Positions 6,254-64,000 of a stretch of DNA of 64,000 nucleotides are shown here, piece after piece; position 1 is the stretch's first letter, and each line of letters starts with the position of its first letter. Origin of the DNA: Euglena gracilis (Eukaryota). The notes under the pieces are model-generated. The model was not told where the DNA came from and did no database searches. It saw only the letters and a program-made list of their open reading frames with translations. The position numbers and the translations under genes are program-made. Where the stretch lies: contig CP154954.1 of assembly GCA_039621445.1 (NCBI GenBank), positions 2,046,001 through 2,110,000 on the forward strand, in the 5' to 3' direction.

Positions 6254-7260
6254 CATTTTCCTTCATAGTTTCTCCGTGGTTCCGAAAACAGCCATGCCGC
6301 GCTGTTTTGGGCCATAAATTGGCCATATTTTGGGCCAGGCGGGGAGTTGCGGGGAAATCAAAACACAATTAGATAGAGCATCGTAAGGGCTCGTAAGGGC
6401 CTCAATTTAGGTCTCAACGTGGTTTTTTGACCCCCCAAAAAAACAGCCCAAAATGGCCCAAAAACGGGCCAAAATGGGCCAAAAAATGGCCGTAACTCGG
6501 GCTACACGAAGAGTCGAGGGAAAAGAAAACCATGGTTGGATACAGCGTTCCAAAGGCTTCATTTTTGCTCTCCGGACATTCTTTTATTTTACTTCATTGT
6601 CGAGATATTTGAAAAAAATCGATTTTTTTTGACCCAGAAACAGCCCAAAAAAAACACTGCAAAATGCCCGTTCTGAGTTGCAAAAGCGCGCCGGAACACG
6701 GGCCAGGCGTGTCGGCAGCCAAAACGGTGATTATGGGGCGGTGATAGAGGGCCTCCGGGGGTGCATTTCGTCAGACCTACATTTCTGGAAAAATTGTACG
6801 TTTTCTGAGATATTTTGGACCCCAGCGAAGTGGCAGAGTCGGAAGAGGGGGCGGGGCAGTCCTACCCAGTGAATAACTCAGGCCTGGCAGGGAGTTGCAG
6901 GTCAAACGGAGGTGATTCGGAAACTGAGATCCAGTCGCTCGCAACTGGAAAAAAAAATTCGGGACCCGGGTCATGGTGATAATTTGCCGGTTCTCCTGGT
7001 GGCCCCGACCCGGGGGGGGACGACCCCCCTTTTCCGCAGTGGAAAGGTTCGCTCTTACACATAAAAGGATAAGAGCTCAGCGACCCCCCCATACCTCCCA
7101 TAAACCGTTTCCTGGTTTCTTTTTCAGTAAACCGTGGGAGTCGTGATAATCAAAAAATGCGGGAATGCTGTGGACCCACCCCCACATCCCCCCATTGAAA
7201 ATGCCAAATATTAGTAAAAATTGCAACTAACCAGAATTCCTGTTTTGATTACCAAATACA
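6254..7260 (+). repeat. ~1-kb solo copy of half of the 2.15-kb tandem unit
   Basis: Nearly identical to ~36704-37710 (CATTTTCCTTCATAG...GATTACCAAATACA). Confidence 0.9.
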
Positions 7261-34710: not shown

Positions 34711-35560
34711 GAACCTATCCCCCTCATGCCTTTGTCCACGGATCCTCACACATCATCCTGAAAAGGAAATTCACGGAAATTCACGGAGGATCACGGAAAT
34801 GGACGGAAGGCCATTTTCACGGAAATCACGGAAAATCACGGAAATTCACGGATGAGGCGGAGGGTTCGGAAAATTTTTTTGTGTTTTTTTTGAATGTGCT
34901 TTGCTTGTGCAGATGCATTTTGATGGGATGTTTTGCACGTTCTCTGCCTTTCCAAACAGACAATCAAGCAAAACCTCATTCAGACAATAACAGATGATTT
35001 TGTGGCCGCTTTCCTCCATTCTGGTCTCCCGGTCACAAAATTGGACAACAAAAGCAACAGAGGTGTTCTCCAGAAATACACCCAAATTGAGGACGTGTAG
35101 GTTTTTGTTTATTCAGAATGACTTTCCACCTTTCGCCCAGGCTGCATCCAGAAGGGTCAATCGCTATATCGGTCCACTGGCAGGGTTTTGGCAACCCATT
35201 TAGGGGCAATCAAGAAAAAAATTCAAGGCCAAAAGGTTGTTTTTTCCCCTCCTCTACGTTTTTTTATTTTCACATTCGGGTGTGGATAGAAATTGATGAA
35301 TTGACAGTTCTGGGCATGTGACCACAAACATTTTGTTAGGTATGCAAGGGAAGATCTACATTGTAGCATGCGTTCAGTTAGATTGCAGAGGGCTTAACTT
35401 GGGGGTTGAGCACTCGGATTTGGCTTCTGTCGAGGCCCTGGAAGATCTCCGGAACTATGATATGGAGAAAAAATCTGCTGCCACAACTGCCCAAATATTG
35501 CTCCGGTGCAGAATGGAATGTGGCTTTTGACCTTTTCCGGAAACAGGAAATTCACGGATA

Positions 35561-38500
35561 CAGAGAGACCCAAATTGATGTATTTCGTTTTTGGTCTGAT
35601 TTTCTTTGGTCTTTCAAGCTTTGCTGAAATTTCAGAACAAATTGGTGATGGAAATCATAATGAGAGAAAACGAGAGAAAACAACCAAAAAAAATATTAAA
35701 TGTTTTATCCTTACATATGGTGCTGGACTGATACATTCTCTGGCTTTGTGTCCAAAGAAGAATTCCGGTTTCCTTCCACAATATCCTCACCCCGGCCGGT
35801 TCCCAGGCCGCAATTTTCTCTGCATTTGAGGGGGTTTTCGTGATGCCAAAACCAACGTGAAGAAAATGGTTTGTTTTCCTTTAGACCTAGAAACTATAAA
35901 CATGGTCTTCGATGTAATTGACAACTCGTACAATGTAAATCAAATGTGTGCCAAAAAGGATACGAGGCTTTTTTATTTAGCTTCTTCCTAATTTTCCTGC
36001 TTTTTTGCATGCCTTTTGGTTTCTTTTCATGAAAAAAATAAATATGATAAATGATGTTGTAAGGAATTACAAAATGACAAATTAAGTTGTATCATTTTAA
36101 GCCCAGGGTTTAACATACCCTAAACGGGTAGACCCCCCTCCTGAGCCTGGCTAGGCACCCAGGAACCACACAGAGGTTATTTTTTGTCCTTCGGCACTTT
36201 TTTGTTATAATATTTTACAACGATTTTTTTTGGATTCTTGATGCACTTCTGCACAAAAAGGAAATTTTTGGCCTAATTTTTCGACTTTTTGACCTAAAAA
36301 TGGCAAAAAAAAAAAAAAACGGCAAAGTCAAAACAAGCCAACACTGTACAAAATGGCCCAAAATTGGCCAAAAAGTAGCCGTAACTCAGGGTAGGCGGGG
36401 AGTTGCGGGGAAATCAAAATACTGTTAAACGAAGCAATTTAAAGGCTTCAATTTGGGTCTCATGACATTTACTTTGATTCCCCACCAATTTTGAGAAACT
36501 TTAAATTTATTTTTTGACCCAAGACAAGGCGGGTTCGACACCAGGCAAAAAGTGAAAAACTCAATCAAATAATTTGGGTCAATAGCAAATGGAACAACAA
36601 GAACGCAGATACCGGGAAAGAACCCCCCACCAACAGCGGCGAACTGCCTACAGCAAAGCCCCAGTGTCAGATCAGCCAAGACACTACAACCCTGTTCCCA
36701 CCCCATTTTCCTTCATAGTTTCTCCGTGATTCCGAAAACAGCCATGCCGCGCTGTTTTGGGCCATAAATTGGCCATATTTTGGGCCAGGCGGGGAGTTGC
36801 GGGGAAATCAAAACACAATTAGATAGAGCATCGTAAGGGCTCGTAAGGGCCTCAATTTAGGTCTCAACGTGGTTTTTTGACCCCCCAAAAAACAGCCCAA
36901 AATGGCCCAAAAATGGGCCAAAATGGGCCAAAAAATGGCCGTAACTCGGGCTACACGAAGAGTCGAGGGAAAAGAAAACCATGGTTGGGTACAGCGTTCC
37001 AAAGGCTTCATTTTTGCTCTCCGGACATTCTTTTATTTTACTTCATTGTCGAGATATTTGAAAAAAATCGATTTTTTTTGACCCAGAAACAGCCCAAAGA
37101 AAACACTGCAAAATGCCCGTTCTGAGTTGCAAAAGCGCGCCGGAACACGGGCCAGGCGTGTCGGCAGCCAAAACGGTGATTATGGGGCGGTGATAGAGGG
37201 CCTCCGGGGGTGCATTTCGTCAGACCGACATTTCTGGAAAAATTGTACGTTTTCTGAGATATTTTGGACCCCAGTGAAATGGCAGAGTCGGAAGAGGGGG
37301 CGGGCCAGTCCTACCCAGTGAATAACTCAGGCCTGGCAGGGAGTTGCAGGTCAAACGGAGGTGATTCGGAAACTGAGATCCAGTCGCTCGCAACTGGAAA
37401 AAAAATTCGGGACCCGGGTCATGGTGATAATTTGCCGGTTCTCCTGGTGGCCCCGACCCGGGGGGGGGACGACCCCCCTTTTCCGCAGTGGAAAGGTTCG
37501 CTCTTACACATAAAAGGATAAGAGCTCAGCGACCCCCCCCATACCTCCCATAAACCGTTTCCTGGTTTCTTTTTCAGTAAACCGTGGGAGTCGTGATAAT
37601 CAAAAAATGCGGGAATGCTGTGGACCCACCCCCACATCCCCCCATTGAAAATGCCAAATATTAGTAAAAATCGCAACTAACCAGAATTCCTGTTTTGATT
37701 ACCAAATACAGAGAGACCCAAATTGATGTATTTCGTTTTTGGTCTGATTTTCTTTGGTCTTTCAAGCTTTGCTGAATTTCAGAACAAATTGGTGATGGAA
37801 ATCATAATTAGATAAAACGAGAGAAAACAACAAAAAAAAATATTATCTATCTTTAAAATTTCCTGATCATTCCTCACAATCTTCTGAGAAGAATTCCGGC
37901 CTTCACAATTTTTCGCCAACATGGTCTTTGATTTTGATGCCAAACCAATGTACTGAAAAGTAAAAATGGTTTTTTTTTCCTTCATATTTCTGGTATCTGA
38001 TACATTCTCTGTGTGCCAAAAAGGATACGGTTTTTATCTTTTTGAATTTCTCTGCATTTGATTTTCGTGGAAAAATGAAAAAATGGTTTGCCTTTAGACC
38101 TGAAAAAAACATTTAAGTTCGTAAACATCAACGGGTAGCAACAATCCCCAGGAACACACAGAGGTTATGTTTTCTTCTCGGTTTTTTTTTCTTTTTTTTT
38201 TTTTCTTGATGCACTTCAAAAATCAATTTTTGGCCAATTTTCGACTTTTGATATGGCCAAAAAAAAAATCAAAACAAGCCAAAACTGTACAAAATGGCCC
38301 AAAATTGGCCAAAAAGTAGCCGTAACTCAGGGTAGGCGGGGAGTTGCGGGGAAATCAAAATACTGTTAAACGAAGCAATTTAAAGGCTTCAATTTGGGTC
38401 TCATGACATTTAATTTGATTCCTCACACAATTTGAGAAACATTAAATATATTTTTGACCCAAGACAAGGCGGGTTCGACACCAGGCAAAAAGTGAAAAAC

Positions 38501-40600
38501 TCAATCAAATAATTTGGGTCAATAGCAAATGGAACAACAAGAACGCAGATACCGGGAAAGAACCCCCCACCAACAGCGGCGAACTGCCTACAGCAAAGCC
38601 CCAGTGTCAGATCAGCCAAGACACTACAACCCTGTTCCCACCCCATTTTCCTTCATAGTTTCTCCGTGATTCCGAAAACAGCCATGCCGCGCTGTTTTGG
38701 GCCATAAATTGGCCATATTTTGGGCCAGGCGGGGAGTTGCGGGGAAATCAAAACACAATTAGATAGAGCATCGTAAGGGCTCGTAAGGGCCTCAATTTAG
38801 GTCTCAACGTGGTTTTTTGACCCCCCAAAAAACAGCCCAAAATGGCCCAAAAATGGGCCAAAATGGGCCAAAAAATGGCCGTAACTCGGGCTACACGAAG
38901 AGTCGAGGGAAAAGAAAACCATGGTTGGGTACAGCGTTCCAAAGGCTTCATTTTTGCTCTCCGGACATTCTTTTATTTTACTTCATTGTCGAGATATTTG
39001 AAAAAAATCGATTTTTTTGACCCAGAAACAGCCCAAAAAAAACACTGCAAAATGCCCGTTCTGAGTTGCAAAAGCGCGCCGGAACACGGGCCAGGCGTGT
39101 CGGCAGCCAAAACGGTGATTATGGGGCGGTGATAGAGGGCCTCCGGGGGTGCATTTCGTCAGACCGACATTTCTGGAAAAATTGTACGTTTTCTGAGATA
39201 TTTTGGACCCCAGTGAAATGGCAGAGTCGGAAGAGGGGGCGGGCCAGTCCTACCCAGTGAATAACTCAGGCCTGGCAGGGAGTTGCAGGTCAAACGGAGG
39301 TGATTCGGAAACTGAGATCCAGTCGCTCGCAACTGGAAAAAAAATTCGGGACCCGGGTCATGGTGATAATTTGCCGGTTCTCCTGGTGGCCCCGACCCGG
39401 GGGGGGACGACCCCCCTTTTCCGCAGTGGAAAGGTTCGCTCTTACACATAAAAGGATAAGAGCTCAGCGACCCCCCCCCCACCTCCCATAAACCGTTTCC
39501 TGGTTTCTTTTTCAGTAAACCGTGGGAGTCGTGATAATCAAAAAATGCGGGAATGCTGTGGACCCACCCCCACATCCCCCCATTGAAAATGCCAAATATT
39601 AGTAAAAATCGCAACTAACCAGAATTCCTGTTTTGATTACCAAATACAGAGAGACCCAAATTGATGTATTTCGTTTTTGGTCTGATTTTCTTTGGTCTTT
39701 CAAGCTTTGCTGAATTTCAGAACAAATTGGTGATGGAAATCATAATGAGAGAAAACGAGAGAAAACAACCAAAAAAAATATTGTTTTATCCTTACATATG
39801 GTGCTACACTGATACATTCTCTGGCTTTTTGTCCATAGAAGATTTCCGTTTTCCTTCCATAATATCCTCACCCCGGCCGGTTCCCGGGCCGCAATTTTTT
39901 CTGCATTTGAGGGGGTTTTCGTGATGCCAAAACCAACGTGAAGAAAATGGTTTGTTTTCCTTTAGACCTAGAAACTATAAACATGGTCTTCGATGTAATT
40001 GACAACTCGTACAATGTAAATCAAATTTGTGCCAAAAAGGATACGAGGCGTTTTTTATTTAGCCTTCCAAAATCAAACCCCTGTTTCCAAAATTGTAGCC
40101 CAGGGCTTTTCATGAAAAAATAAATATGATAAATATGTTGTAAGGAATTACAAAATGACAATTAAGTTGTACAGTAAGACCGGGTTTTAACACCCTCGGG
40201 TAACCCCCCTCCTGAGCCTGTAGGCACCCAGGAACCCCCACACCAGAGGTTATTTTTTTTCCTTCGGCGCCTTTTGTGTCATAACATTTTGCAACGATTT
40301 TTTTTGGATTCTGATGCCATTGTTTCTGCCCAAAAATTTGGCCTAATTTTTCGACTTTTTGACCAAATCAAAAACAGCAATCAAAACAAGCCAACTGTAC
40401 AAAATGGCCCAAAATGGCCAAAAAGGCCGTAACTCGGGTAGGCGGGGGAGTCGGGGAAAAGAAAACCATGGTTGGTACAGCAATTTAAAGGCTTCATTCT
40501 TTGCTCTCCGGACATTTACTTTGATTTCCCCAGATATTTGAAAACGATTTTTTTTGACCCAACACTGGCCGTTTGCAAAACACAGGCAAAAACTCAAGCC
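35561..40600 (+). repeat. Tandem array of ~2.15-kb units (left arm; units 2 and 3 degraded)
   Basis: Units start at CAGAGAGACCCAAATTG (~35560, ~37710, ~39647). Confidence 0.85.
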
Positions 40601-41612
40601 AAAAATGCGGTGCTGATGGAATTGTAATCACCATATCTCAGGCTTGGCGGCACTCAAAAATGTTATTGGCATTTTAAGGTTTCAATATGGAATATCCGGA
40701 CATCTCGGTTTTTCTGTTCATTTCGAGATATTTTGGCATTTTCAATCGGGGGGCCCAGGAAAAACGTCCAACCGGGACTGTTCAAACATTTTTTTTTTCG
40801 TCCAAACGGGATGGACGAGAATGGTAGATTGGGGGGTTGCAGCACTGTTGGTCGCAAACACCCGAGCCTGGGATGGGGGGACGACCCCCTTTTCCGCAGT
40901 GGGGTTCGCTCAAATTCAGCGACCCCCCCCCATCCCTCCCCGTAATTCCTACTTGGCCCGAGGAATCACTGTATTTGATAGCCACAAAATCGCAAATGCC
41001 AACATTTTAAAAATGAAGCAAAATCCATCAAATTCAGCAAAAGTGCTTGATGAACTTAAAACGGCCTTTACACTGAAACCAAAACACAATTAGACAGGGC
41101 AGTTTAGGAGCTGCTTTTGATCTTGAAAATTTATTCATTTTGCTTCATTTTAGAGATATTCTCAAATTTCAAAAAAAAACAAAAATGAGGCAGCAAAATT
41201 TGGGTGTAACTTTGGTCAGCTGCGAAACTTCCAAAGAATGTGCACACACGGCGTTTACACGGGCTTGATTTTTTTGTTGGTCCCTTTGGGCAGCTGGCCT
41301 TCCTTGGGCCTGATAGCACAAAAAGCAAGCACTCAGGACACAATTAACCATCAGATAAACCCCCCACTCCACGCCGCATGAAGCTCTGCCCGGACGAGAC
41401 GGGCGGGGTACAAACATCCAGGGAGGGGGGTGGGGGGAGACGCTGCCGTGACTGGGAACCAATGGCCGAGACCCAGCGAGAAACACAACTGTACCGAGCG
41501 ATTCACAAACCCCTTGGGCCGACGGGGGGGTTCCTGGCGGGGGTTCCGTTTCACAGCACCGTCCCATCGTGTGGAGAGAAACACACAATGGGACGTGACG
41601 GGAGGGGGCATA

Positions 41613-51217
<9,605 letters not shown>

Positions 51218-51318
51218 GGGGCCAGCCCTCCGCTTCTCACCCCCACGGGGCGGCCGGTGAGGGTGGTTGGAGGCCTTGCCGGCCGGCCGCTGCCAAGGCA
51301 GAGGGGAGGAGCCGGGTG

Positions 51319-51676
51319 CAGGCTTTTGCTTAAGGGATTGCAGTACCCCCCCGGGGGGGGGGGGCTGGACTACAGCTAGTCCAAATTGCCTAGTGGTATT
51401 TCTAGCAGACGGGGTTCTGTTAGGGCTAGCTAGTGGAAAAAATTTTCCTGTGACCGACGCGGACCCCCAAAAATGGCTAAAAATGCCCGTTGGGAATTTT
51501 TGTAACGAAATCAGCCAAAAACCTACTCAAAACCTCATTTTTCCAGTTCGGGGACCCCCCGGAAACCCCCCACCCCCGGGGGTGGAAGTGGGTCTAGTTA
51601 GTCCACTTTTTTCCAGTGTCTAGCCGATTGGCTAGTCAGTACCCCCCCCTTCCGGGGGTCCTTAAGCAAAAGCCTG
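51319..51676. mobile_element. Mirror copy of the 49281-49637 MITE
   Basis: Same TIRs; flanks GCCGGGTG/GCCGGCAG. Confidence 0.9.
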
Positions 51677-51805
51677 GCCGGCAGGGAGTGGGGGCTGCCG
51701 AGGGCCCGGCCCATCCGCTGGAGGGGAGGGCTGGCAGGAAGCGGACCACACATAGCTGGTGTTGCACTGTGGGGGTGGGGGTTGGGGAAGCGAAGGGGTG
51801 GCCCC

Positions 51806-54400
51806 GGCGCTGCGGACCAACGCCGCGTTGCAGAAGGTGAACCTCAGATGTATGGCCCCTCTCTGCGGTTCCTGTCACACACGTTGGTGTATTGGTGTGA
51901 CGGGGAGGTGCCGTAGCAAAACCGTTTGTGTTAAAATGGTATCGATCATATTTTCCACCACCTGCCATTGTGGGGTGGGGTGACAATGTGGTACCGTCGG
52001 ATTCCAGCCAGCAGCATTGGGGGGGGGGGGCTGATCCATGTCATGTCTTAGGACATGGAACAGTGCAATGCCTGTGGTGGTTTGTCGCACCAAACTCACA
52101 ATGTTCTGTTTATTGTTAATCTGCACTGAAAGGGGTATTTGTCCCCACATTTCTAGCAAAGCACCTGCTGAATTGCACAAAGCACTGTGAGCGAAGTGAC
52201 TCGTGTGTGACACAACACCTTCCCATCAAAGCGAGGAGATGAACCCTACAGCACCTCGGAGGTGTATTTTGGTTACGAAAGGATCATTTTTTTTACTGCA
52301 ACAAACATTGCAGATGAATACTTTGGGTTTTCTTGAGCCGGAGGTGACCCTACCCGAGGGGGGGTCCAGACTGCCAGTAACTTTTTTCCAGTCATCACCT
52401 CCCAGCTGGGCTGGGATCCACACCCTGTTGTGGGTCCGTTGGGATACAGTTTAGGCCAAGCCAGCGAAGCCGGGCAGTTACCGATAATGTTTTCAGCGCA
52501 AAGCCACAAAATTTTGGAGAAAAGGGTCAAAAATGGCCAAAAATGTATTTTTTAGGTGCTTTTTGAGTTTTCACCTCCTGATTTTGCTTAAAAATGGCAA
52601 CGCGGCTCGATTTAGGTTTTTTGGGGGGGACTTCTTGGGTACCTGTCCCCCCAGCCAGCAACTTTTTCCAGCTGGCCCGCAGTTTTTGTCTGTTTTTGCT
52701 TATTTCCACCTTAGAGCCTGTGGCTACCGTGACCCACAGTTCGTTCCCGTGTTCTTTGTCACTTCCCTTCTTCCCCTTGCCCTGCGCAGGGAACTCCATC
52801 GGGTCGGAGGGCGCCAAAGCGTTGGCGGAGGCCAGGGCTGCGCTTCTGAACGGGGGAAGGTTGCCACACACCCGGGGGTAGGGGAAGTGTTGGGGCGGTG
52901 GGGGAAGGGTCAGCGTTGGGGATGGGACTGCCGCGTCAGGGGCACCAAACCACACACCCCACCCTCCCCAAGGTGTGGGGGTGTGGGGGGTGTGGGGGTG
53001 AGAAGCGGAGGGCTGGCCCCGGCTCTCCGGACTAACGCCACGCTGCGGGAGGTGAACCTCCTTGGTATGCCCCCTCCCCTCCCCTCCCGTACCGTTCCGT
53101 GGGGTGTTTCTCTCCACCGCGATGGGCCGGTGCTGTGAAAAGGAACCACCGCCACAAACCCCCCGTCGCCCATGGTCGCTGCTAGCTGATGCCCGCTGAA
53201 TCGCTCGGTGCGGTTGGGTTGTTCTCGCTGGGTCTCGGCCATTGGTCCCCAGTCACGGCACGCGTCACCCCCCACCCCACTCCCTGAGTGTGGTGCCCCC
53301 GCCCGTCTCGTCCGGGCGGTGCGTCGTGTGGCGTGGAGTGGGGGGTTTCTCTTGATGGTTAATTGTGTCCTGAGTGTTTGCGGCACACGGCACATACGGC
53401 ACATGTGTTTCTCGGAAGTTCCGCAGCTGACCAAAGTTACACCCAAATTCTGCTGCCTCATTTTTGATTTGTTTTTTGAAATTTCAGAATAACTCTAAAA
53501 TGAAGCAAAATGAATAAATTTGTCAACATCAAAAGCCGCCTTTAACCTGCCCTGTCTAACCATATTTTCGTTTCAGTGTAAAGCTGTAAATAAGTTCATC
53601 AAGCACTTTTGTTGTATTTTGCTTCATTTTTGAAATCGGTGGCATTTCGCGCTTTTGCAGCTTAAATACAGTGATTCCTCGGGCCAGGTAAGGAATTACG
53701 GGAGCCCTCATGGAACGCAATTTTTATTTTCCACCCATCCCAAGCTCTGGCGTGTTTGCGACACCAAACAGTGCTGCAAGCCCCCCACTCTACCATTCTC
53801 GTCCATCCCGTCTTTGGGCCGACAGAAACTGTTTTGTGCAGTCCAGTTTGGGACGTTTTTTCTGGGCCCCAAAATTGCGAAATACCAAATATCTCGAAAA
53901 TGAAGCAGAATCAAACAGAATGTCCAGATATCTAAATTGAAACCTTAAGAATGCCCAATTAAAACTTTTTTATTGCCGCCAAGCCTGAGAAATGGCTGAT
54001 TTACACTCCCAATCAGCATTGCAGGCTTGTCTGGGCTGTGATGGGCCGCTGGGCCGGGCCGGGTATGTTGCTGTTCATCACAAAGAGCTCAGCACCAAAG
54101 AAAACGTGGCAATTCCAGACCCCCCCTCCAACGCACCACTCAGGGCCAACCCAAAAAAGGTCGACAATTTGCGCCTTTGCGATTTTTAAGCAATTTTTCC
54201 GAATTTTCACCCAAACAATGCCGAAAATTAATATTTTTCACCGATTTTTGGTTGGCAAATTCTTTTCAACGCTCTGCACTGCCCAAAGAGTCACCCGGAC
54301 CACGAGAGGGGAAGGGTGACTCTTAGGCACCCCCTGCATTCCAATAAAAAAAACGGTGTTTTTTCTTAGGGTTTCAAGGCATGCCTGCTGCTGCCCAAAG

Positions 54401-54465
<65 letters not shown>

Positions 54466-57400
54466 GCGCGCGCGCGCGGATGCGCAAAGAGCACGGATGC
54501 CCGAACACGCAAAGAGGCAGTTCGCGGTTGTTAATATCGCAGATGAAACCCCTTTTTGTTTTCTTGAGTCGGAGGTGACCCTACACGGGGGGGGGGGGGT
54601 CCAGACTGCGCTGTAATTACACCAGAGTTACTCACCCGGCCAGGGGGAGCAACAAAAGAGCACTGGTGTAAGGGGTCCTTGGCCACTTACCACACAGCAA
54701 ACTGGGCCAGAAACGAAGATAGTGCCGGCCATAAACAGACAAGAAGCCTTAGTGCAACAAAGGGGGGTTCCAGACTGCCAGCAACTTTTTCCAGCATGCA
54801 CTTCCCAGCTGGGCTGGGATCCACACCCTGTGGTGGGTCCGCTGAAATAAAATTTGGGCCAAACCAGCGAAGCCAGGCAGTAACGATAACGTTTCGGCGC
54901 AAAGCCTCAAAATTTTTGGAGACATGGGTCAAAAGTAGCCTAAAAAGTGGTTTTCCAGGTGCTTTTTGAGTTTTTACCTCCTGATTTTGAGGGGAAAAAT
55001 GGCAACGCATCTCGATTTTTGCTTTTGGGGGGTACATCTTGGGTACCTGCCGGATGCTCAACCTCACAGGACCCGGGGGGTGATTCAGCCTGCACTTTTC
55101 TTCCCCCCAGCCAGCAACTTTTTCCAGGTGGCCCACAGTATTTTTATTTCTTTTTGGCTTATTTCCACCTTAGAGCCTGTGGCTACCGTGACCCACAGTT
55201 CGTTCCCGTGTTCTTTGTCACTTCCCTTCTTCCTCTTGCCCTGCGCAGGCAACGCCATCGGGCCGGAGGGCGCCAAAGCGTTGGCGGAGGCCAGGGCTGC
55301 GCTTCTGAATGGGGGAAGGTTGCCACACACCCGGGGGTAGGGGAAGTGTTGGGGCGGTGGGGGAATGGTCAGCGTTGGGGATGGGGCTGCCGCGTCAGGG
55401 GCACCAAACCACACACCCAACCCTCCCCAAGGTGTGTGGGGGTGTGGGGTGTGGGGGTGAGAAGCGGAGGGCTGGCCCCGGCTCTCCGGACTAACGCCAC
55501 GCTGCAGGAGGTGGACCTCGGCTGTATGCCCCCTCCCCTCCCGTCCCGTTCCGTGGGGTGTTTCTCTCCACCGCGATGGGCCAGTGCTGTGAAAAGGAAC
55601 CGCCGCCACAAACCCCCCGTCGGCCCAAGGGCTGTGTGAATCGCTCGGCGTGGTTGGGTTGTTGTCGCTGGGTCTCGGCCATTGGTCCCCAGTCACGGCA
55701 CGCGTCACCCCCCACCCCACTCACCTGGGTGTGGTGCCCCCGCCCGTCTCGTCCGGGCGGTGCTTCATGCGGCGTGGAGTGGGGGGTTTCTCTTGATGGT
55801 TAATTGTGTCCTGAGTGCTTGCGGTGTACTGGGGGATCAGGCCCAAGGATTAGCCGAGCTATGTAGCTGACCAAAGTTACACCCAAATTTTGCTGCCTCA
55901 TTTTTGATATGTTTTTTTTGAAATTTGAAAATATATCTGAAATTCAGCAAAATGAGTAGATTTTCAACATCAAAAGCAGCCTTTAAACTGCCCTGTCTAA
56001 CCATATTTTGGTTTCAGTGTAAAGCCGTAATTAAATTCATCAAGCATTTTTGCTGGAATTTGATGTATTTTGCTTCATTTTTGAAATTGTTGGCATTTCG
56101 CTATTTTGCGGCTTAAATACAGTGATTACTCGGGCCAGGTGAGGAATTATGGGAGCCCTCATGGGACGCAGTTTTTATTCTCCCCCGCTTCCTGCGGTCC
56201 CGCCCATCCCAAGCTCTGGCGTGTTTGCGACACCAAACAGTGCTGCAAGCTCCCCACTCTACCAGTCTCGTCCATCCAGTCTTTGGGCCGACAAAAACTG
56301 TTTTGTGCAGTCTAGTTTGGGACGTTTTTTCCTTGGTCCCATCATTACAAAATGCCGAATAACTCGGAAATTAAGCAGAATCAAGCAGAATGTCCGGATA
56401 TCCAAATTGGAACCTTAAAGATGCCCAACTAAACTGTTTTTTATTGCCCCTTTCCCCTCCCTCTGCCACCTGCTGTCCGGCACGTAGGCACCGGCATTGG
56501 GGACGAGGGGACCGTAGCGTTGGCGGTGGCCAGGCCTGCGCTTCAGCGATGTCATCCCCCTCCCCTGGGGGTGTCGGGGTGGATGGGGCACAGGAAGGCC
56601 TGGGCGGCCGGTGAGGGGCGGGTGGAGGCGGTGCCGGCCGGCCGCTGCCAAGGCAGAGGGGAGGGGCCGGGTGGGAGTGGGGGCTGCCGAGGGCCCGGCC
56701 CATCCGCTGGAGAGAAGGGCTATCAGTAAGCAGACCCCCCATGGCTGGTGTGGCACTGTGGGGTGGGGGTGGGTTGGGGAAGCGAAGGGGTGGCCCCGGC
56801 GCTGCGGACCAACTCCGCGTTGCAGAAGGTGGACCTCCACTGTATGTCCCCTCTCACGTTGGTGCATTGACGTGACGGGGAGGTGCCGTTGCAAAACAGT
56901 TTGTGTTGAAATGGTATCGATCCTATTTTCCACCACCTGCCATTGTGGGGTGGGGATCCAATGTGGTACCGTCGGATTCCAGCCAGCAGGATTGAGGGGG
57001 GGGGGAGGCTGATCCATGTTTGAGGACATGGAACATTGCAATGCCTGTGGTAGTTTATCGCACCAAACCCTCCCTATCCCGTTTTTTTTTGTTTCATTGT
57101 GCTGAAAGGGGTATTTGTCCCCACATTTTCAGCAAAGCACCTGCTGAATTGCACAAAGCACTGTGAGCGAAGTGACTCGTGTGTGACACAACACCCTCCC
57201 ATCAAAGCGAGGAGATGAAGCCTGCAGAACCTCGGAGGTGTATTTTGGTTACGAAAGGATCATTTTTTTTACTGCAACAAACATTGCAGATGAATACTTT
57301 GGGTTTTCTTGAGCCGGAGGTGACCCTACCCGAGGGGGGGTCCAGACTGCCAGTAACTTTTTTCCAGTCATCACCTCCCAGCTGGGCTGGGATCCACACC

Positions 57401-58037
57401 CTGTTGTGGGTCCGTTGGGATACAGTTTAGGCCAAGCCAGCGAAGCCGGGCAGTTACCGATAATGTTTTCAGCGCAAAGCCACAAAATTTTGGAGAAAAG
57501 GGTCAAAAATGGCCAAAAAGTGTTTTTTAGGTGCTTTTTGAGTTTTCACCTCCTGATTTTGCTTAAAAATGGCAACGCGGCTCGATTTAGGTTTTTTTGG
57601 GGGGACTTCTTGGGTACCTGTCCCCCCAGCCAGCAACTTTTTCCAGCTGGCCCGCAGTTTTTGTCTGTTTTTGCTTATTTCCACCTTAGAGCCTGTGGCT
57701 ACCGTGACCCACAGTTCGTTCCCGTGTTCTTTGTCCCTTCCCTTCTTCCCCTTGCCCTGCGCAGGGAACTCCATCGGGTCGGAGGGCGCCAAAGCGTTGG
57801 CGCAGGCCAGGGCTACGCTTCTGAACGGGGGAAGGTTGCCACACACCCGGGGGTAGGGGAAGTGTTGGGGTGGTGGGGGAAGGGTCAGCGTTGGGGATGG
57901 GACTGCCGCGTCAGGGGCACCAAACCACACACACCACCCTCCCCAAGGTGTGGGGGTGTGGGGTGTGGGGGTGAGAGGCGGAGGGCTGGCCCCGGCTCTC
58001 CGGACTAACGCCACGCTGCGGGAGGTGAACCTCAGCC
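51806..58037 (+). CDS. RI-like LRR protein (partial; right arm). Exons 51806-51849, 52790-52829, 53021-53064, 55249-55288, 55480-55523, 56488-56527, 56798-56841, 57765-57804, 57994-58037
   Basis: ALRTNAALQKVNLRWNSIGSEGAKALAE ALRTNATLREVNLLGNAIGPEGAKALAE ALRTNATLQEVDLGCTGIGDEGTVALAV ALRTNSALQKVDLHWNSIGSEGAKALAQ ALRTNATLREVNLS; open frame across all junctions. Confidence 0.92.
52830..53020 (+). other. Nonconventional intron
   Basis: A|GGCCAGGGCTGCGCTTC...GAAGCGGAGGGCTGGCCCC|G; CAG at +4, CTG at -8, terminal stem; no GT-AG. Confidence 0.88.
55289..55479 (+). other. Nonconventional intron
   Basis: Same termini as 52830-53020. Confidence 0.88.
56528..56797 (+). other. Nonconventional intron (GTG variant at -8)
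   Basis: T|GGCCAGGCCTGCGCTTC...GAAGCGAAGGGGTGGCCCC|G. Confidence 0.8.
57805..57993 (+). other. Nonconventional intron
   Basis: A|GGCCAGGGCTACGCTTC...GAGGCGGAGGGCTGGCCCC|G. Confidence 0.88.
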
Positions 58038-59070
58038 GTATGCCCCCTCCCGTCACGTCCCATTGTGTGGGGTGTTTCTCTCCACCACGATGGGACGGTG
58101 CTGTGAAACGGAACCCCCGCCAGGAACCCCCCCGTCGGCCCAAGGGGTTTGTGAATCGCTCGGTACAGTTGTGTTATTCTCGCTGGGTCTCGGCCATTGG
58201 TTCCCAGTCACGGCACGCGTCTCCCCCCACCCCCCTCCCTGGATGTTTGTACCCCCGCCCGTCTCGTCCGGGCAGAGCTTCATGCGGCGTGGAGTGGGGG
58301 GTTTATCTTGATGGTTAATTGTGTCCTGAGTGCTTGCGGTGTGCTGGGGGATCAGGCCCAAGGATAGGCCGAGCTGCCCAAAGGGACCAACAAAAAAAAT
58401 CAAGCCCGTGTAAACGCCGTGTGCACATGTCTTTCTCGGAAGTTTCGCAGCTGACCAAAGTTACACCCAAATTTTGCTGCCTCATTTTTGGTTTTTTTTT
58501 GAAATTTGAGAATATCTCTAAAATGAAGCAAAATGAATAAAATTTTCAAGATCAAAAGCAGCTCCTAAACTGCCCTGTCTAATTGTGTTTTGGTTTCAGT
58601 GTAAAGGCCGTATTTAAGTTCATCAAGCACTTTTGCTGGAATTTGATGGATTTTGCTTCATTTTTAAAATTGTTGGCATTTCGCGATTTTGTGGCTTAAA
58701 TACAGTGATTCCTCGGGCCAAGTAGGGAATTACGGGAGCCCGCATGGAACTGAATTTCCCCCCCCCCACTTCCTGCGGTCCCGCCCATCCCAGGCTCTGG
58801 CGTGTTTGCGACACCAAACAGTGCTGCAAGCCCCCCAATCTACCATTCTCGTCCATCCCGTCTTTGGACCAAAAAAAATGTTTTGAACAGTCCAGTTTGG
58901 GACGTTTTTCCTGGGCCCCAAAATTTGAAAATGCCAAATATCTCGAAAATGAAGCAGAATCAAGCAGAATGTCCGGATATCCATATTGAAACCTTAAGAA
59001 TGCCCAATTGAACAGTTTTTGAGTGCCGCCAAGCCTGAGATATGGCTGATTTACAATTCCAATCAGCACC

Positions 59071-62000
59071 GCAAATTATTTGATTGAGTTTTTCACTTTT
59101 TGCCTGGTGTCGAACCCGCCTTGTCTTGGGTCAAAAAATAAATTTAACGTTTCTCAAAAATGGTGGGGAATCAAAGTAAATGTCCTGAGATTCAAATTGA
59201 AGGCTTTAAATTGCTTCGTTAAGCAGTATTTTGATTTCCCCGCAACTCCCCGCCTACCCTGAGTTACGGCTACTTTTTGGCCAATTTTGGGCCATTTTGT
59301 ACAGTTTTGGCTTGTTTTGATTTTGCCGTTTTTTGGCCATTTTCAGGTCAAAAAGTCGAAAAATTAGGCCAAAAATTGTCTTTTTGGGCAGAAGTGCATC
59401 AAGAATCCAAAAAAAATCGTTGCAAAATATTATAACAAAAAAGCGCCGAAGGAAAAAAAAATAACCTCTGTGTGGTTCCTGGGTGCCTAGCCAGGCTCAG
59501 GAGGGGGGTCTACCCGTTTAGGGTATGTTAAACCCTGGGCTTAAAATGATACAACTTAATTTGTCATTTTGTAATTCCTTACAACATCATTTATCATATT
59601 TATTTTTTTCATGAAAAGAAACCAAAATGCATGCAAAAAAGCAGGAAAATTAGGAAGAAGCTAAATAAAAAAGCCTCGTATCCTTTTTGGCACACATTTG
59701 ATTTACATTGTACGAGTTATCAATTACATCGAAGACCATGTTTATAGTTTCTAGGTCTAAAGGAAAACAAACCATTTTCTTCATGTTGGTTTTGGCATCA
59801 CGAAAACCCCCTCAAATGCAGAAAAAAAATGGGAACCGGCCGGGGTGAGGATATTGTGGAAGGAAACCGGAATTCTTCTTTGGACACAAAGCCAGAGAAT
59901 GTATCAGTCCAGCACCATATGTAAGGATAAAACACTTAATTTTTTTTCGGTTGTTTTCTCTCGTTTTCTCTCATTATGATTTCCATCACCAATTTGTTCT
60001 GAAATTTCAGCAAAGCTTGAAAGACCAAAGAAAATCAGACCAAAAACGAAATACATCAATTTGGGTCTCTCTGTATTTGGTAATCAAAACAGGAATTCTG
60101 GTTAGTTGCAATTTTTACTAATATTTGGCATTTTCAATGGGGGGATGTGGGGGTGGGTCCACAGCATTCCCGCATTTTTTGATTATCACGACTCCCACGG
60201 TTTACTGAAAAAGAAACCAGGAAACAGTTTATGGGAGGGATGGGGGGGGGTCGCTGAGCTCTTATCCTTTTATGGGTGAGAGCGAACCTTTCCACTGCGG
60301 AAAAGGGGGGTCGTCCCCCCCCCCCCCCGGGTCGGGGCCACCAGGAGAACCGGCAAATTATCACCATGACCCGGGTCCCGAATTTTTTTTCCAGTTGCGA
60401 GCGACTGGATCTCAGTTTCCGAATCACCTCCGTTTGACCTGCAACTCCCTGCCAGGCCTGAGTTATTCACTGGGTAGGACTGGCCCGCCCCCCCTTCCGA
60501 CTCTGCCATTTCGCTGGGGTCCAAAATATCTCAGAAAACGTACAATTTTTCCAGAAATGTCGGTCTGACGAAATGCACCCCCGGAGGCCCTCTATCACCG
60601 CCCCATAATCACCGTTTTGGCTGCCGAGACGCCTGGCCCGTGTTCCGGCGCGCTTTTGCAACTCAGAACGGGCATTTTGCAGTGTTTTTTTTGGGCTGTT
60701 TCTGGGTCAAAAAAAATCGATTTTTTTTCAAATATCTCGACAATGAAGTAAAATAAAAGAATGTCCGGAGAGCAAAAATGAAGCCTTTGGAACGCTGTAC
60801 CCAACCATGGTTTTCTTTTCCCTCGACTCTTCGTGTAGCCCGAGTTACGGCCATTTTTTGGCCCATTTTGGCCCATTTTTGGGCCATTTTGGGCTGTTTT
60901 TTGGGGGGGTCAAAAAAACCACGTTGAGACCTAAATTGAGGCCCTTACGAGCCCTTACGATGCTCTATCTAATTGTGTTTTGATTTCCCCGCAACTCCCC
61001 GCCTGGCCCAAAATATGGCCAATTTATGGCCCAAAACAGCGCGGCATGGCTGTTTTCGGAATCACGGAGAAACTATGAAGGAAAATGAGGTGGGAACAGG
61101 GTTGTAGTGTTTTGGCTGATCTGACACTGGGGCTTTGCTGTAGGCAGTTCGCCGCTGTTGGTGGGGGGTTCTTTCCCGGTATCTGCGTTCTTGTTGTTCC
61201 ATTTGCTATTGACCCAAATTATTTGATTGAGTTTTTCACTTTTTGCCTGGTGTCGAACCCGCCTTGTCTTGGGTCAAAAAATAAATTTAAAGTTTCTCAA
61301 AATTGGTGGGGAATCAAAGTAAATGTCATGAGACCCAAATTGAATCCTTTAAATTGCTTCGTTTAACAGTATTTTGATTTCCCCGCAACTCCCCGCCTAC
61401 CCTGAGTTACGGCTACTTTTTGGCCAATTTTGGGCCATTTTGTACAGTTTTGGCTTGTTTTGATTTTGCTGTTTTTTTGGCCATATCAACACGTGTATAT
61501 CAGTCGTATCCTTTTTGGCACAAATTTGATTTACATTGTACGAGTTGTCAATTACATCGAAGACCATGTTTATAGTTTCTAGGTCTAAAGGAAAACAAAC
61601 CATTTTCTTCACGTTGGTTTTGGCATCACGAAAACCCCCTCAAATGCAGAGAAAATTGCGGCCCGGGAACCGGCCGGGGTGAGGATATTGTGGAAGGAAA
61701 CCGGAATTCTTCTTTGGACACAAAGCCAGAGAATGTATCAGTCCAGCACCATATGTAAGGATAAAACACTTAATATTTTTTTTGGTTGTTTTCTCTCGTT
61801 TTCTCTCATTATGATTTCCATCACCAATTTGTTCTGAAATTCAGCAAAGCTTGAAAGACCAAAGAAAATCAGACCAAAAACGAAATACATCAATTTGGGT
61901 CTCTCTGTATTTGGTAATCAAAACAGGAATTCTGGTTAGTTGCGATTTTTACTAATATTTGGCATTTTCAATGGGGGGATGTGGGGGTGGGTCCACAGCA

Positions 62001-64000
62001 TTCCCGCATTTTTTGATTATCACGACTCCCACGGTTTACTGAAAAAGAAACCAGGAAACGGTTTATGGGAGGTATGGGGGGGGTCGCTGAGCTCTTATCC
62101 TTTTATGTGTAAGAGCGAACCTTTCCACTGCGGAAAAGGGGGGTCGTCCCCCCCCCGGGTCGGGGCCACCAGGAGAACCGGCAAATTATCACCATGACCC
62201 GGGTCCCGAATTTTTTTTCCAGTTGCGAGCGACTGGATCTCAGTTTCCGAATCACCTCCGTTTGACCTGCAACTCCCTGCCAGGCCTGAGTTATTCACTG
62301 GGTAGGACTGGCCCGCCCCCTCTTCCGACTCTGCCATTTCACTGGGGTCCAAAATATCTCAGAAAACGTACAATTTTTCCAGAAATGTCGGTCTGACGAA
62401 ATGCACCCCCGGAGGCCCTCTATCACCGCCCCATAATCACCGTTTTGGCTGCCGACACGCCTGGCCCGTGTTCCGGCGCGCTTTTGCAACTCAGAACGGG
62501 CATTTTGCAGTGTTTTCTTTGGGCTGTTTCTGGGTCAAAAAAAATCGATTTTTTTCAAATATCTCGACAATGAAGTAAAATAAAAGAATGTCCGGAGAGC
62601 AAAAATGAAGCCTTTGGAACGCTGTACCCAACCATGGTTTTCTTTTCCCTCGACTCTTCGTGTAGCCCGAGTTACGGCCATTTTTTGGCCCATTTTGGCC
62701 CATTTTTGGGCCATTTTGGGCTGTTTTTTGGGGGGTCAAAAAACCACGTTGAGACCTAAATTGAGGCCCTTACGAGCCCTTACGATGCTCTATCTAATTG
62801 TGTTTTGATTTCCCCGCAACTCCCCGCCTGGCCCAAAATATGGCCAATTTATGGCCCAAAACAGCGCGGCATGGCTGTTTTCGGAATCACGGAGAAACTA
62901 TGAAGGAAAATGGGGTGGGAACAGGGTTGTAGTGTCTTGGCTGATCTGACACTGGGGCTTTGCTGTAGGCAGTTCGCCGCTGTTGGTGGGGGGTTCTTTC
63001 CCGGTATCTGCGTTCTTGTTGTTCCATTTGCTATTGACCCAAATTATTTGATTGAGTTTTTCACTTTTTGCCTGGTGTCGAACCCGCCTTGTCTTGGGTC
63101 AAAAAATAAATTTAAAGTTTCTCAAAATTGGTGGGGAATCAAAGTAAATGTCATGAGACCCAAATTGAAGCCTTTAAATTGCTTCGTTTAACAGTATTTT
63201 GATTTCCCCGCAACTCCCCGCCTACCCTGAGTTACGGCTACTTTTTGGCCAATTTTGGGCCATTTTGTACAGTGTTGGCTTGTTTTGACTTTGCCGTTTT
63301 TTTTTTTTTGGCCATTTTCAGGTCAAAAAGTCGAAAAATTAGGCCAAAAATTGCCTTTTTGGGCAGAAGTGCATCAAGAATCCAAAAAAATCGTTGTAAA
63401 ATATTATAACAAAAAAGTGCCGAAGGACAAAAAATAACCTCTGTGTGGTTCCTGGGTGCCTAGCCAGGCTCAGGAGGGGGGTCTACCCGTTTAGGGTATG
63501 TTAAACCCTGGGCTTAAAATGATACAACTTAATTTGTCATTTTGTAATTCCTTACAACATCATTTATCATATTTATTTTTTTCATGAAAAGAAACCAAAA
63601 GGCATGCAAAAAAGCAGGAAAATTAGGAAGAAGCTAAATAAAAAGCCTCGTATCCTTTTTGGCACACATTTGATTTACATTGTACGAGTTGTCAATTACA
63701 TCGAAGACCATGTTTATAGTTTCTAGGTCTAAAGGAAAACAAACCATTTTCTTCACGTTGGTTTTGGCATCACGAAAACCCCCTCAAATGCAGAGAAAAT
63801 TGCGGCCTGGGAACCGGCCGGGGTGAGGATATTGTGGAAGGAAACCGGAATTCTTCTTTGGACACAAAGCCAGAGAATGTATCAGTCCAGCACCATATGT
63901 AAGGATAAAACATTTAATATTTTTTTTGGTTGTTTTCTCTCGTTTTCTCTCATTATGATTTCCATCACCAATTTGTTCTGAAATTTCAGCAAAGCTTGAA
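59071..64000 (-). repeat. Tandem array of ~2.15-kb units (right arm) downstream of the last visible LRR exon
   Basis: Unit boundaries CAATTTGGGTCTCTCTG at ~60072 and ~61907; the middle unit has an internal deletion near 61485-61505. Confidence 0.88.

Follow-up and report, generated by a model that had tools for sequence, protein, structure and literature searches.

Introduction

Genes that carry conventional and nonconventional introns side by side are known from euglenids, in tubA and gapC and, genome-wide, in Euglena agilis and Euglena gracilis (PMC6221363; PMC12501133; PMC11170887), and were reported to be common (PMC12501133). Conventional introns of E. gracilis were described as GT-AG introns with a G at +5, a C-rich tract, the 5' consensus GTGTG and a (C)AG 3' site (PMC11170887), which are removed before the nonconventional ones (PMC6221363). 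For the latter a genetically defined code, 5'-N3-CDG..CH'G-N5-6 followed by a purine-starting exon, was reported, the signature being found in 61.2% of such introns, and single changes in the C-H-G motif abolished splicing in a knock-in assay (PMC12501133); CCAGG at +3 to +7 is the E. gracilis consensus of this class (PMC11170887). In the present study a leucine-rich repeat (LRR) array of E. gracilis was analyzed, in which each repeat of 28 amino acids (aa) is split by one intron of each class. It lies in a stretch of 64,000 nucleotides (nt) from GenBank assembly GCA_039621445.1 (contig CP154954.1, positions 2,046,001 to 2,110,000, forward strand), referred to as the window, in whose coordinates all positions are given.

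With the two-class genes of euglenids the array shares the presence of both classes in one gene, paired ends of the nonconventional introns, the conventional features and, in four of its eight nonconventional introns, the complete signature (N3-CAG, CTG-N5-6, purine). It differs from them in a strict periodic alternation, with one intron of each class per 28-residue repeat and exons of only 40 and 44 nt between them, and in that its nonconventional introns were multiplied by duplication of the host module and not by insertion at new sites.

The second system to be compared is that of the RNH1/NLRP-type LRR genes of animals. Repeats of the ribonuclease inhibitor (RI) type have a period of 28-29 residues, a core of LxxLxLxxN(x)I/L and a following helix of G..GA..LA..L, and the LRR exons of NLRP genes measure 171 nt. 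Like the array, these genes consist of 28-residue RI-type repeats (Pfam LRR_6) with exons in register with the repeats. One exon of RNH1 holds two repeats, whereas in the array a single repeat is split twice into micro-exons, and of the two introns that it receives one belongs to a non-spliceosomal type, unlike in animal RI/NLR genes. In contrast to animal NLRs, no NACHT or other signalling domain was found by Pfam in the scanned open reading frames (ORFs) of the window or in the Euglena relatives. Skipping of RNH1 exon 7 was reported to cause the in-frame loss of 57 residues (PMC10400601).

A published description of this LRR family or of a periodic alternation of intron classes was not found in the literature searched. 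A first-pass annotation, made from the letters alone, had proposed that two splicing systems alternate along one transcript and that whole modules could be skipped, the gene being a potential cassette system for receptor diversity in a protist. In our analysis it is quite probable that the array is part of a gene from a large, expressed RI-type LRR_6 family, and that it is processed by the dual splicing already known from euglenids, here acting on an LRR module that was duplicated. The locus brings both splicing systems within a few dozen nucleotides of each other, repeatedly and on one pre-mRNA, around exons of 40 and 44 nt, and is a convenient substrate for questions of exon definition, removal order and the published nonconventional code.

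Layout and reading frame

Five exons of 44 nt and four of 40 nt alternate on the + strand:

51806-51849, + strand: 44-nt β-strand exon of type A, peptide ALRTNAALQKVNLR; from exon comparison and nucleotide profile
52790-52829, + strand: 40-nt helix exon h1, peptide NSIGSEGAKALA; from the profile; Pfam LRR_6 positions 12-24, E 0.049, below cut-off
53021-53064, + strand: 44-nt β-strand exon of type B, peptide ALRTNATLREVNLL; from exon comparison and nucleotide profile
55249-55288, + strand: 40-nt helix exon h2, peptide NAIGPEGAKALA; Pfam LRR_6, E 0.016, below cut-off
55480-55523, + strand: 44-nt β-strand exon of type B', peptide ALRTNATLQEVDLG; from exon comparison and nucleotide profile
56488-56527, + strand: 40-nt helix exon h3, peptide TGIGDEGTVALA; from exon comparison and nucleotide profile
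56798-56841, + strand: 44-nt β-strand exon of type A', peptide ALRTNSALQKVDLH, opening the second super-unit of 4992 nt; from self-comparison
57765-57804, + strand: 40-nt helix exon h4, peptide NSIGSEGAKALA, nucleotide end GCGCA; from exon comparison and profile
57994-58037, + strand: 44-nt β-strand exon of type B'', peptide ALRTNATLREVNLS, with GTATGC directly after it; from the profile

Joined by their coordinates, the nine exons form 126 codons, of which one frame is free of stops and the other two contain three and four; the open frame corresponds to four and a half repeats, and its four complete 28-residue repeats agree with the RI-type consensus. Nucleotide profiles run over the whole 64 kb recovered the 44-nt exon 11 times (E 4e-11 to 1e-15) and the 40-nt exon eight times (E 2e-8 to 6e-11), together with one degenerate copy, all of them confined to 41615-58037 and none located elsewhere in the window. 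The anatomy is confirmed, far beyond chance, and the twofold splitting of each RI-like repeat, as first described, was borne out by the exon map, the single open frame, the profiles and the RNA junctions.

An in-frame ATG was sought in the + strand array and none was found, and over its full length the window showed no Rfam match at the gathering thresholds. Pfam likewise returned no family for 20 chosen stop-to-stop ORFs of the window (119-306 aa), which are not the 20 longest, since ORFs in poly-C runs and inside the array were excluded; NACHT/NB-ARC, kinase, TIR or transmembrane parts were therefore not seen in these 20 ORFs, and exons encoding them may exist beyond the window.

Conventional introns

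Each 44-nt exon is immediately followed by a phase-1 intron starting with GTATG(G/C/T) and ending with (C/T)AG, as the first-pass annotation had described:

51850-52789, + strand: conventional intron of 940 nt, GTATGG..GCAG, phase 1, C-rich pyrimidine tract, no terminal pairing, RNA depth about zero inside
53065-55248, + strand: conventional intron of 2184 nt, GTATGC..GCAG, with high-copy repeats and an (AC)31 run inside
55524-56487, + strand: conventional intron of 964 nt, GTATGC..GTAG
56842-57764, + strand: conventional intron of 923 nt, GTATGT..GCAG
58038-59070, + strand: start of a fifth conventional intron, homologous to the 2184-nt intron until about 59068-59073

The 5' end was found in eight of nine copies, the ninth, in the left arm of an inverted repeat treated below, reading GTATCC. 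The last 20 nt hold 9-11 C and 3-8 T, a G stands at +5 and the 3' end is GCAG or GTAG, while terminal folds of the five GT-AG introns tested (10 nt + U7 + 10 nt) reached only 0 to -5.6 kcal/mol. Compared with published conventional introns of E. gracilis (PMC11170887), borders, +5 G, C-rich tract and 3' AG are alike, and the 5' end is GTATG here and GTGTG there. The long introns of the array fit the conventional, spliceosomal class of Euglena.

Nonconventional introns

Each 40-nt exon is immediately followed by an intron of phase 2 with a GG start and a CC end, in accordance with the stem-forming non-GT-AG introns of about 190-270 nt first noted in the helix:

52830-53020, + strand: nonconventional intron of 191 nt, GGC-CAG..CTG-GCCCC followed by a G-starting exon, phase 2, end pairing -10.5 kcal/mol, fits the code
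55289-55479, + strand: nonconventional intron of 191 nt, N3-CAG..CTG-N5 followed by G, fits the code
56528-56797, + strand: nonconventional intron of 270 nt, 5' GGC-CAG, 3' motif GTG instead of CTG, ends pair
57805-57993, + strand: nonconventional intron of 189 nt, fits the code, ends pair

Both strands together hold eight copies, all of which have borders other than GT/GC-AG (GG start, CC end), a GGC-CAG 5' end, CCAGG at +3 to +7 and a G-starting next exon. The ends pair in all eight at -10.5 to -11.7 kcal/mol when the terminal 10 nt are linked by seven U, as was done in PMC11170887. In minimum-energy folds of whole introns the ends were paired in six of the eight, the exceptions being a copy with an insertion resembling a miniature inverted-repeat transposable element (MITE) and a low-quality left-arm copy. 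An exact fit to 5'-N3-CAG..CTG-N5 then G was found in three of four introns on the + strand and in four of eight on both strands; in the three complete copies of the 270-nt type the 3' motif reads GTG, and in one copy of the left arm CCG. The nonconventional introns share their first 18 or so and last 20 or so nt among one another, and the conventional introns also share their ends. Apart from the 3' motif of these four copies, the short introns match the published nonconventional introns of euglenids.

An observation of its own concerns the 270-nt type (56528-56797, 44109-44378, 49152-49786), in which CAG is kept and GTG is conserved among copies that differ by about 12%, and whose exon junction is abundant in the RNA of the family. 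CAG..GTG is a natural variant of the code that the published assay would predict to fail (PMC12501133).

Junction use in RNA

Over 49600-59100 two RNA runs of raw reads (X21, X24), one run of probable RNA contigs (X16) and one of probable DNA contigs (X6) were compared, and the best 15 of 176 joints are considered here. Three nonconventional junctions are in use: 52829>53021 (18 reads in X21, three in X24, four contigs in X16), 55288>55480 (141 and 24 reads) and 56527>56798 (169 and 51 reads, three contigs), the last accompanied by the joint 56526>56797, shifted by one base (105 and 38 reads). The borders of nonconventional joints are 'slidable' by three letters. The acceptor at 57994 is also used in RNA, in the joint 55288>57994 and in 58 loose-end X21 reads that show a helix-exon end before it.

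Among the conventional junctions, 53060>55248 with three other letters between was found in eight X21 reads, five X24 reads and one X16 contig, and 55521>56486 and 55521>56488 in five, one and three, respectively; in 107 X21 reads a β-exon-like sequence directly abuts the helix exon at 55250. These junctions are less clean, since family members differ from one another in the final 3-4 nt of the 44-nt exon. The 15 of 176 joints considered include none for the introns of 940 and 923 nt. Joints of either class were looked for in the DNA-type run X6 and none was present there. In X21 and X24 RNA depth was about zero in intron bins (e.g. 52136-52769, 55623-56256, 58159-59100). In the bin 54989-55305 of the stranded run X24 first mates reached a depth of 31.4 on the - strand and 1.66 on the +, which means RNA sense to the LRR frame if the usual convention of stranded libraries holds for X24.

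The reads resemble the window copy only in part. At least 99% identity was reached by 41 of 1202 reads in X21, the other 1161 being 95-99% alike and 922 of the 1202 lying only partly on the stretch, and by 27 of 500 reads in X24; most RNA reads therefore come from paralogues. Where the window has T at 53033, 55492 and 58006, T occurs in 50 of 254, five of 173 and 64 of 401 X21 reads, and G in 204, 168 and 337 of these. Of the 22806 depth units that X6 has at 53033, 22174 belong to the G variant; the genome would accordingly hold many more modules than the window, X6 depths being sums over contigs and a rough guide only. An exact 45-nt string of an exon/intron junction, searched for in metagenome contigs, gave no match.

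Both junction types are thus spliced in RNA at the level of the family, and with junctions of both kinds present in two RNA runs and absent from the DNA run, the proposal of two splicing systems on one transcript held at that level; a lack of transcripts using these junctions had been named beforehand as what would speak against it.

Relatives in Euglena

A contiguous 46-residue read-through of a helix exon matched one database protein, EG_transcript_53015 (P0001, 114 aa, EukProt), whose prefix 'EG_' we take, from the database name, to stand for Euglena gracilis. In its last 25 residues this protein equals helix exon h2 and, beyond it, the 12 codons with which the adjoining nonconventional intron begins, the intron part being identical to 55289-55325 within a whole match of 55251-55325, so that the predicted protein is partly intron-encoded. 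Upstream, its β-strand exon joins the helix exon directly and the conventional intron is gone. The transcript has thus lost its conventional intron and kept the nonconventional one, as does the intermediate reported for E. gracilis, in agreement with the order of removal given there (PMC6221363).

Four more transcript proteins of Euglena came from searches with EG_transcript_53015 and then with EG_transcript_23535 (P0005). When the exons of the array are joined, their product aligns without gaps over its eight junctions, with 82 of 125 residues identical to EG_transcript_23535, 62 of 86 to EG_transcript_41433, 60 of 86 to EG_transcript_27904 and 65 of 124 to EG_transcript_15336. The same repeat is found in the relatives at 52-72% identity over 86-125 residues, gap-free for four of the five proteins. 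Two helix-exon peptides, NAIGPEGAKALAEA and GIGDEGTVALAVA, are identical in relatives; the h2 peptide is identical in EG_transcript_53015 and EG_transcript_23535, and h3 agrees in 13 of 13 residues with EG_transcript_27904.

The 66% identical relative EG_transcript_23535 carries Pfam LRR_6 (PF13516; 103 bits, E 1.5e-30), and its matches among solved structures were LRRC34 (5e-43), ribonuclease inhibitor 1z7x (1e-33), 5irl_A (5e-30), deposited as 'Uncharacterized protein' and presumably NOD2, and NLRP14 (4e-21), further a ribonuclease-inhibitor-like protein, DRC5 and RanGAP1; axonemal LRR proteins are thus found among the best matches beside those of the RI and NLR types. Contiguous read-through peptides of the window itself matched LRR_6 at positions 12-24 in two of six cases (E 0.016 and 0.049), below the 23.4-bit cut-off. 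The Euglena relatives are small, soluble proteins of 150-397 aa and possess a Met-initiated cap and low-complexity C-terminal tails, neither of which is present in the window. EG_transcript_41433 and EG_transcript_27904 show a two-module alternation, while the window copy has a three-module unit. A receptor or signalling domain was not seen in the relatives, EG_transcript_53015 and EG_transcript_23535 carrying LRR_6 only according to Pfam. The locus is thus a sign that Euglena expresses an LRR_6 family of considerable size, as yet undescribed, with variation on ligand-facing positions.

Origin of the alternation

Self-comparison aligned 51676-53383 with 56665-58339 at 91% identity, introns included, and the step from 51806 to 56798 gives a tandem period of 4992 nt, which is three modules. 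An ancestral 28-residue module would already have been split into a 44-nt β-strand exon and a 40-nt helix exon, with a GT-AG intron of phase 1 just past the β strand and a nonconventional intron of phase 2 at the end of the helix. This module would have been copied in tandem, and later the 5-kb unit of three modules, introns included; the strict alternation of intron classes would follow because the duplicated module already had one of each. In the transcript the spliceosome would remove the conventional introns first, and the nonconventional ones would leave later, after pairing of their ends (GGC-CAG with CTG-N5 and a purine-starting next exon). Both the history of duplication and the order of removal at the locus are inferred. 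On this account nonconventional introns can increase in number when the module that hosts them is duplicated, and can remain better conserved than the neighbouring coding sequence.

Several points weigh against this explanation. Junction use is established for the family, and the reads neither prove nor rule out that this very copy is transcribed; the five Euglena transcript proteins all differ from the window product, the best reaching 72% identity over 86 residues. The assignment of the joined product to the family was made by local alignment to relatives, Pfam having covered contiguous stretches only. Finally, the 270-nt type has GTG in place of the required C-H-G, and since single changes were reported to abolish splicing (PMC12501133), its competence at this locus is uncertain.

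Inverted copy and truncation

Self-BLAST revealed that 35613-49714 is the reverse complement of 51246-64000, over about 14 kb and up to the end of the window, so that the repeat may be longer. The two arms are 97.5-99.6% identical in four blocks and 91% in one. The following features belong to this arrangement:

41615-51217, - strand: inverted copy of the array with one extra 5' module; from profiles and self-comparison
51217-51174, 49151-49108, 47821-47778, 45376-45333, 44108-44065 and about 41656-41615 (frameshifted), - strand: β-strand exons
49826-49787, 48051-48012, 45604-45565, 44418-44379 and, degenerate, 41864-41839, - strand: helix exons
49715-51245, no strand: spacer of about 1.5 kb between the arms, holding the extra - strand module; from self-comparison
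51246-51805, + strand: truncated 3' part of a 270-type intron, without its first 76 or so nt and the upstream helix exon, with a MITE-like insertion inside

The extra module of the spacer consists of the β-strand exon 51217-51174 and the helix exon 49826-49787, with a complete 635-nt copy of the 270-type intron that bears a MITE-like insertion of 366 nt, and the - strand array runs through the spacer unbroken. On the + strand the truncated intron is joined head-to-head at 51246 to the last 30 or so nt of another nonconventional intron. At the other end, after the last LRR exon (58037), a tandem repeat replaces the intron sequence near 59070 and continues to the end of the window, with no further LRR exon. 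N-caps and C-tails of the Euglena relatives, compared with the window by tblastn, were not found (best E 0.04). With an intron cut at 51246 and with N-cap and C-tail absent from the window, what the assembly shows as the reported copy is only a fragment of a gene.

As to the inversion, we regard it as likely, if with some reserve, that it is an artefact of assembly or reads, one locus having been read twice and once poorly. Between the arms only nine of 55 substitutions in 8127 aligned positions are transitions, compared with 121 of 242 between the tandem units (Fisher p 4e-6). The left arm alone contains poly-C runs, at 42283-43573 (1291 nt, 92% C) and 48200-48344 (145 nt), to which no poly-G run of the right arm corresponds. 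The last module of the left arm (41550-41960), beside the longer run, shows many deletions of 1-6 nt against the right arm, and the most divergent block of the left arm lacks 94 bases and has 40 additional ones. It is this transversion-heavy, error-like spectrum together with the poly-C runs and clusters of deletions that argues for one locus read twice.

The alternative is a real inverted duplication, by a rearrangement of the fold-back type within stem-forming introns, which would have left the + strand copy a dead, headless pseudogene fragment. It is possible but unlikely. The spacer of 1.5 kb speaks for it, as its module differs by about 9-12% from its counterparts and a simple fold-back read would not yield such a spacer, and so does the junction at 51246, which cuts two nonconventional introns and leaves the right copy without the 5' half of the intron and its upstream exon; the absence of N-cap and C-tail exons from the window fits as well. 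A dead copy is not what the right arm suggests, however, its exons all being intact and in frame, and the arms differ by only 0.2-1.2% substitutions, with the spectrum and the left-arm lesions already described.

Module variation and the source of diversity

Exons have diverged no more slowly than introns: between the tandem units ten of 128 exon sites differ and 33 of 1101 intron sites (p 0.010). Of three helix-exon comparisons, two showed a difference of 3.7-4.2% in the nonconventional intron and of 7.5-10% in the adjoining helix exon, while in the third (h1 and h4) both were about equal (intron 4 of 189, exon 1 of 40). In 19 repeats, four from the window and 15 from the five Euglena proteins, entropy exceeds 3 bits at positions 14, 15 and 17. 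L2, N5 and G22 never vary and positions 8, 11, 13, 18 and 26 are aliphatic throughout, yet the regular expression used to pick the repeats had prescribed or narrowed all eight, and their conservation is not independent evidence; the sole independent conservation, among unrestricted positions, is that of position 16 (N/Q/S/T, 0.88 bits). Position 14 is the last full codon of the 44-nt exon and position 15 the codon split by the conventional intron, and both are exposed positions after the β strand in the standard LRR model. To judge by these sequences the family looks functional and diversifying in the germline. Its diversity is genome-encoded in many paralogous modules that vary mainly at exposed LRR positions; an origin by alternative splicing is not shown.

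A diversification at the level of DNA, in which conserved introns serve as homology tracts for unequal crossing-over or gene conversion and exposed residues are under positive selection, would account for exons that differ more than introns between the tandem units, for nonconventional introns more conserved than or about equal to their helix exons, for variation centred on positions 14, 15 and 17 within an invariant framework and for the many more module copies suggested by X6. The counts are small, however, the comparisons not independent and the copy number a rough estimate from summed contig depth, and in two of three β-exon comparisons the flanking conventional intron was as diverged as the exon. 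Such a process is quite improbable on this evidence. Marginally less probable still would be a large germline repertoire of RI-type LRR binding surfaces in Euglena, built from 84-nt modules with hypervariable positions 14, 15 and 17 around the conventional intron and with the conserved introns, the nonconventional ones above all, as homology tracts or splice scaffolds for the exchange of modules among paralogues; if true, it would be a protist counterpart of modular LRR immune repertoires.

The cassette system, finally, would derive many LRR isoforms from one locus by skipping 84-nt modules through either splicing route. Its arithmetic is correct, as 44 + 40 = 84 nt and a skip keeps the frame; non-adjacent joints do occur, 55288>57994 in 266 reads of X21 and 103 of X24 and 51847>55250/55251 in 16 reads of X21, and expressed relatives show a two-module order (A, then TGIG-type), where the locus has a unit of three modules. 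Against this stands an impossible backward joint, 55288>53021, which 174 reads of X21 carry, not many fewer than the forward one. The three acceptor exons differ at few positions, and at 55506 the base of the other two exons is carried by 150 of 183 X21 reads, just as 84-97% of the reads at 53033, 55492 and 58006 carry a base not found in this locus; over four marker positions of the 44-nt exons a paralogue's base is seen in 84-99% of reads. The backward joint and the paralogue bases imply that cross-module joints reflect near-identical exons and other loci. Accordingly, neither exon skipping for 55288>57994 and 51847>55250 nor back-splicing for 55288>53021 was accepted, since acceptor exons that are almost the same and variants from paralogues account for these joints. 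The relatives with another module order differ in residues too and are therefore other genes, the locus has no 5' end, in-frame ATG or receptor domain that could be found, and only 11 skipped-exon events among 28,337 introns were reported for E. gracilis (PMC11170887). Cross-module and backward joints were both seen and short reads cannot assign them to the locus; isoform diversity from it has no support, although short reads do not exclude it. With a backward joint, paralogue reads, a headless copy and relatives lacking a receptor domain, the cassette for receptor diversity was not borne out and is very improbable, and a new way of generating receptor diversity is not revealed on present evidence.

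Repetitive elements

The MITE-like insertion at 51319-51684 (366 nt; with a copy within 49152-49786 on the - strand) has terminal inverted repeats of 17 nt, CAGGCTTTTGCTTAAGG and CCTTAAGCAAAAGCCTG, and an imperfect flanking duplication of 8 nt, and the summed X6 depth of its bin is 146,170. The tandem repeat that follows the array belongs to a family of 1.8-1.9 kb with copies 95-99% identical at 59068-64000, 35558-40592 and 6254-7260; it had no Rfam or Pfam match, and no RNA reads were found over 58159-59100.

Inside the 2.2-kb conventional intron lies a perfect microsatellite of unequal length in the two arms, (AC)31 at 54402-54463 and (GT)28 at 46388-46443. Conventional introns also contain very high-copy repeats, at 54355-54988, about 52330-52700 and about 57310-57640, with summed X6 depths of 164,000-176,000. 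At position 54608, 59 X24 reads share an unrelated 5' extension, which means that these high-copy elements are transcribed somewhere in the genome.

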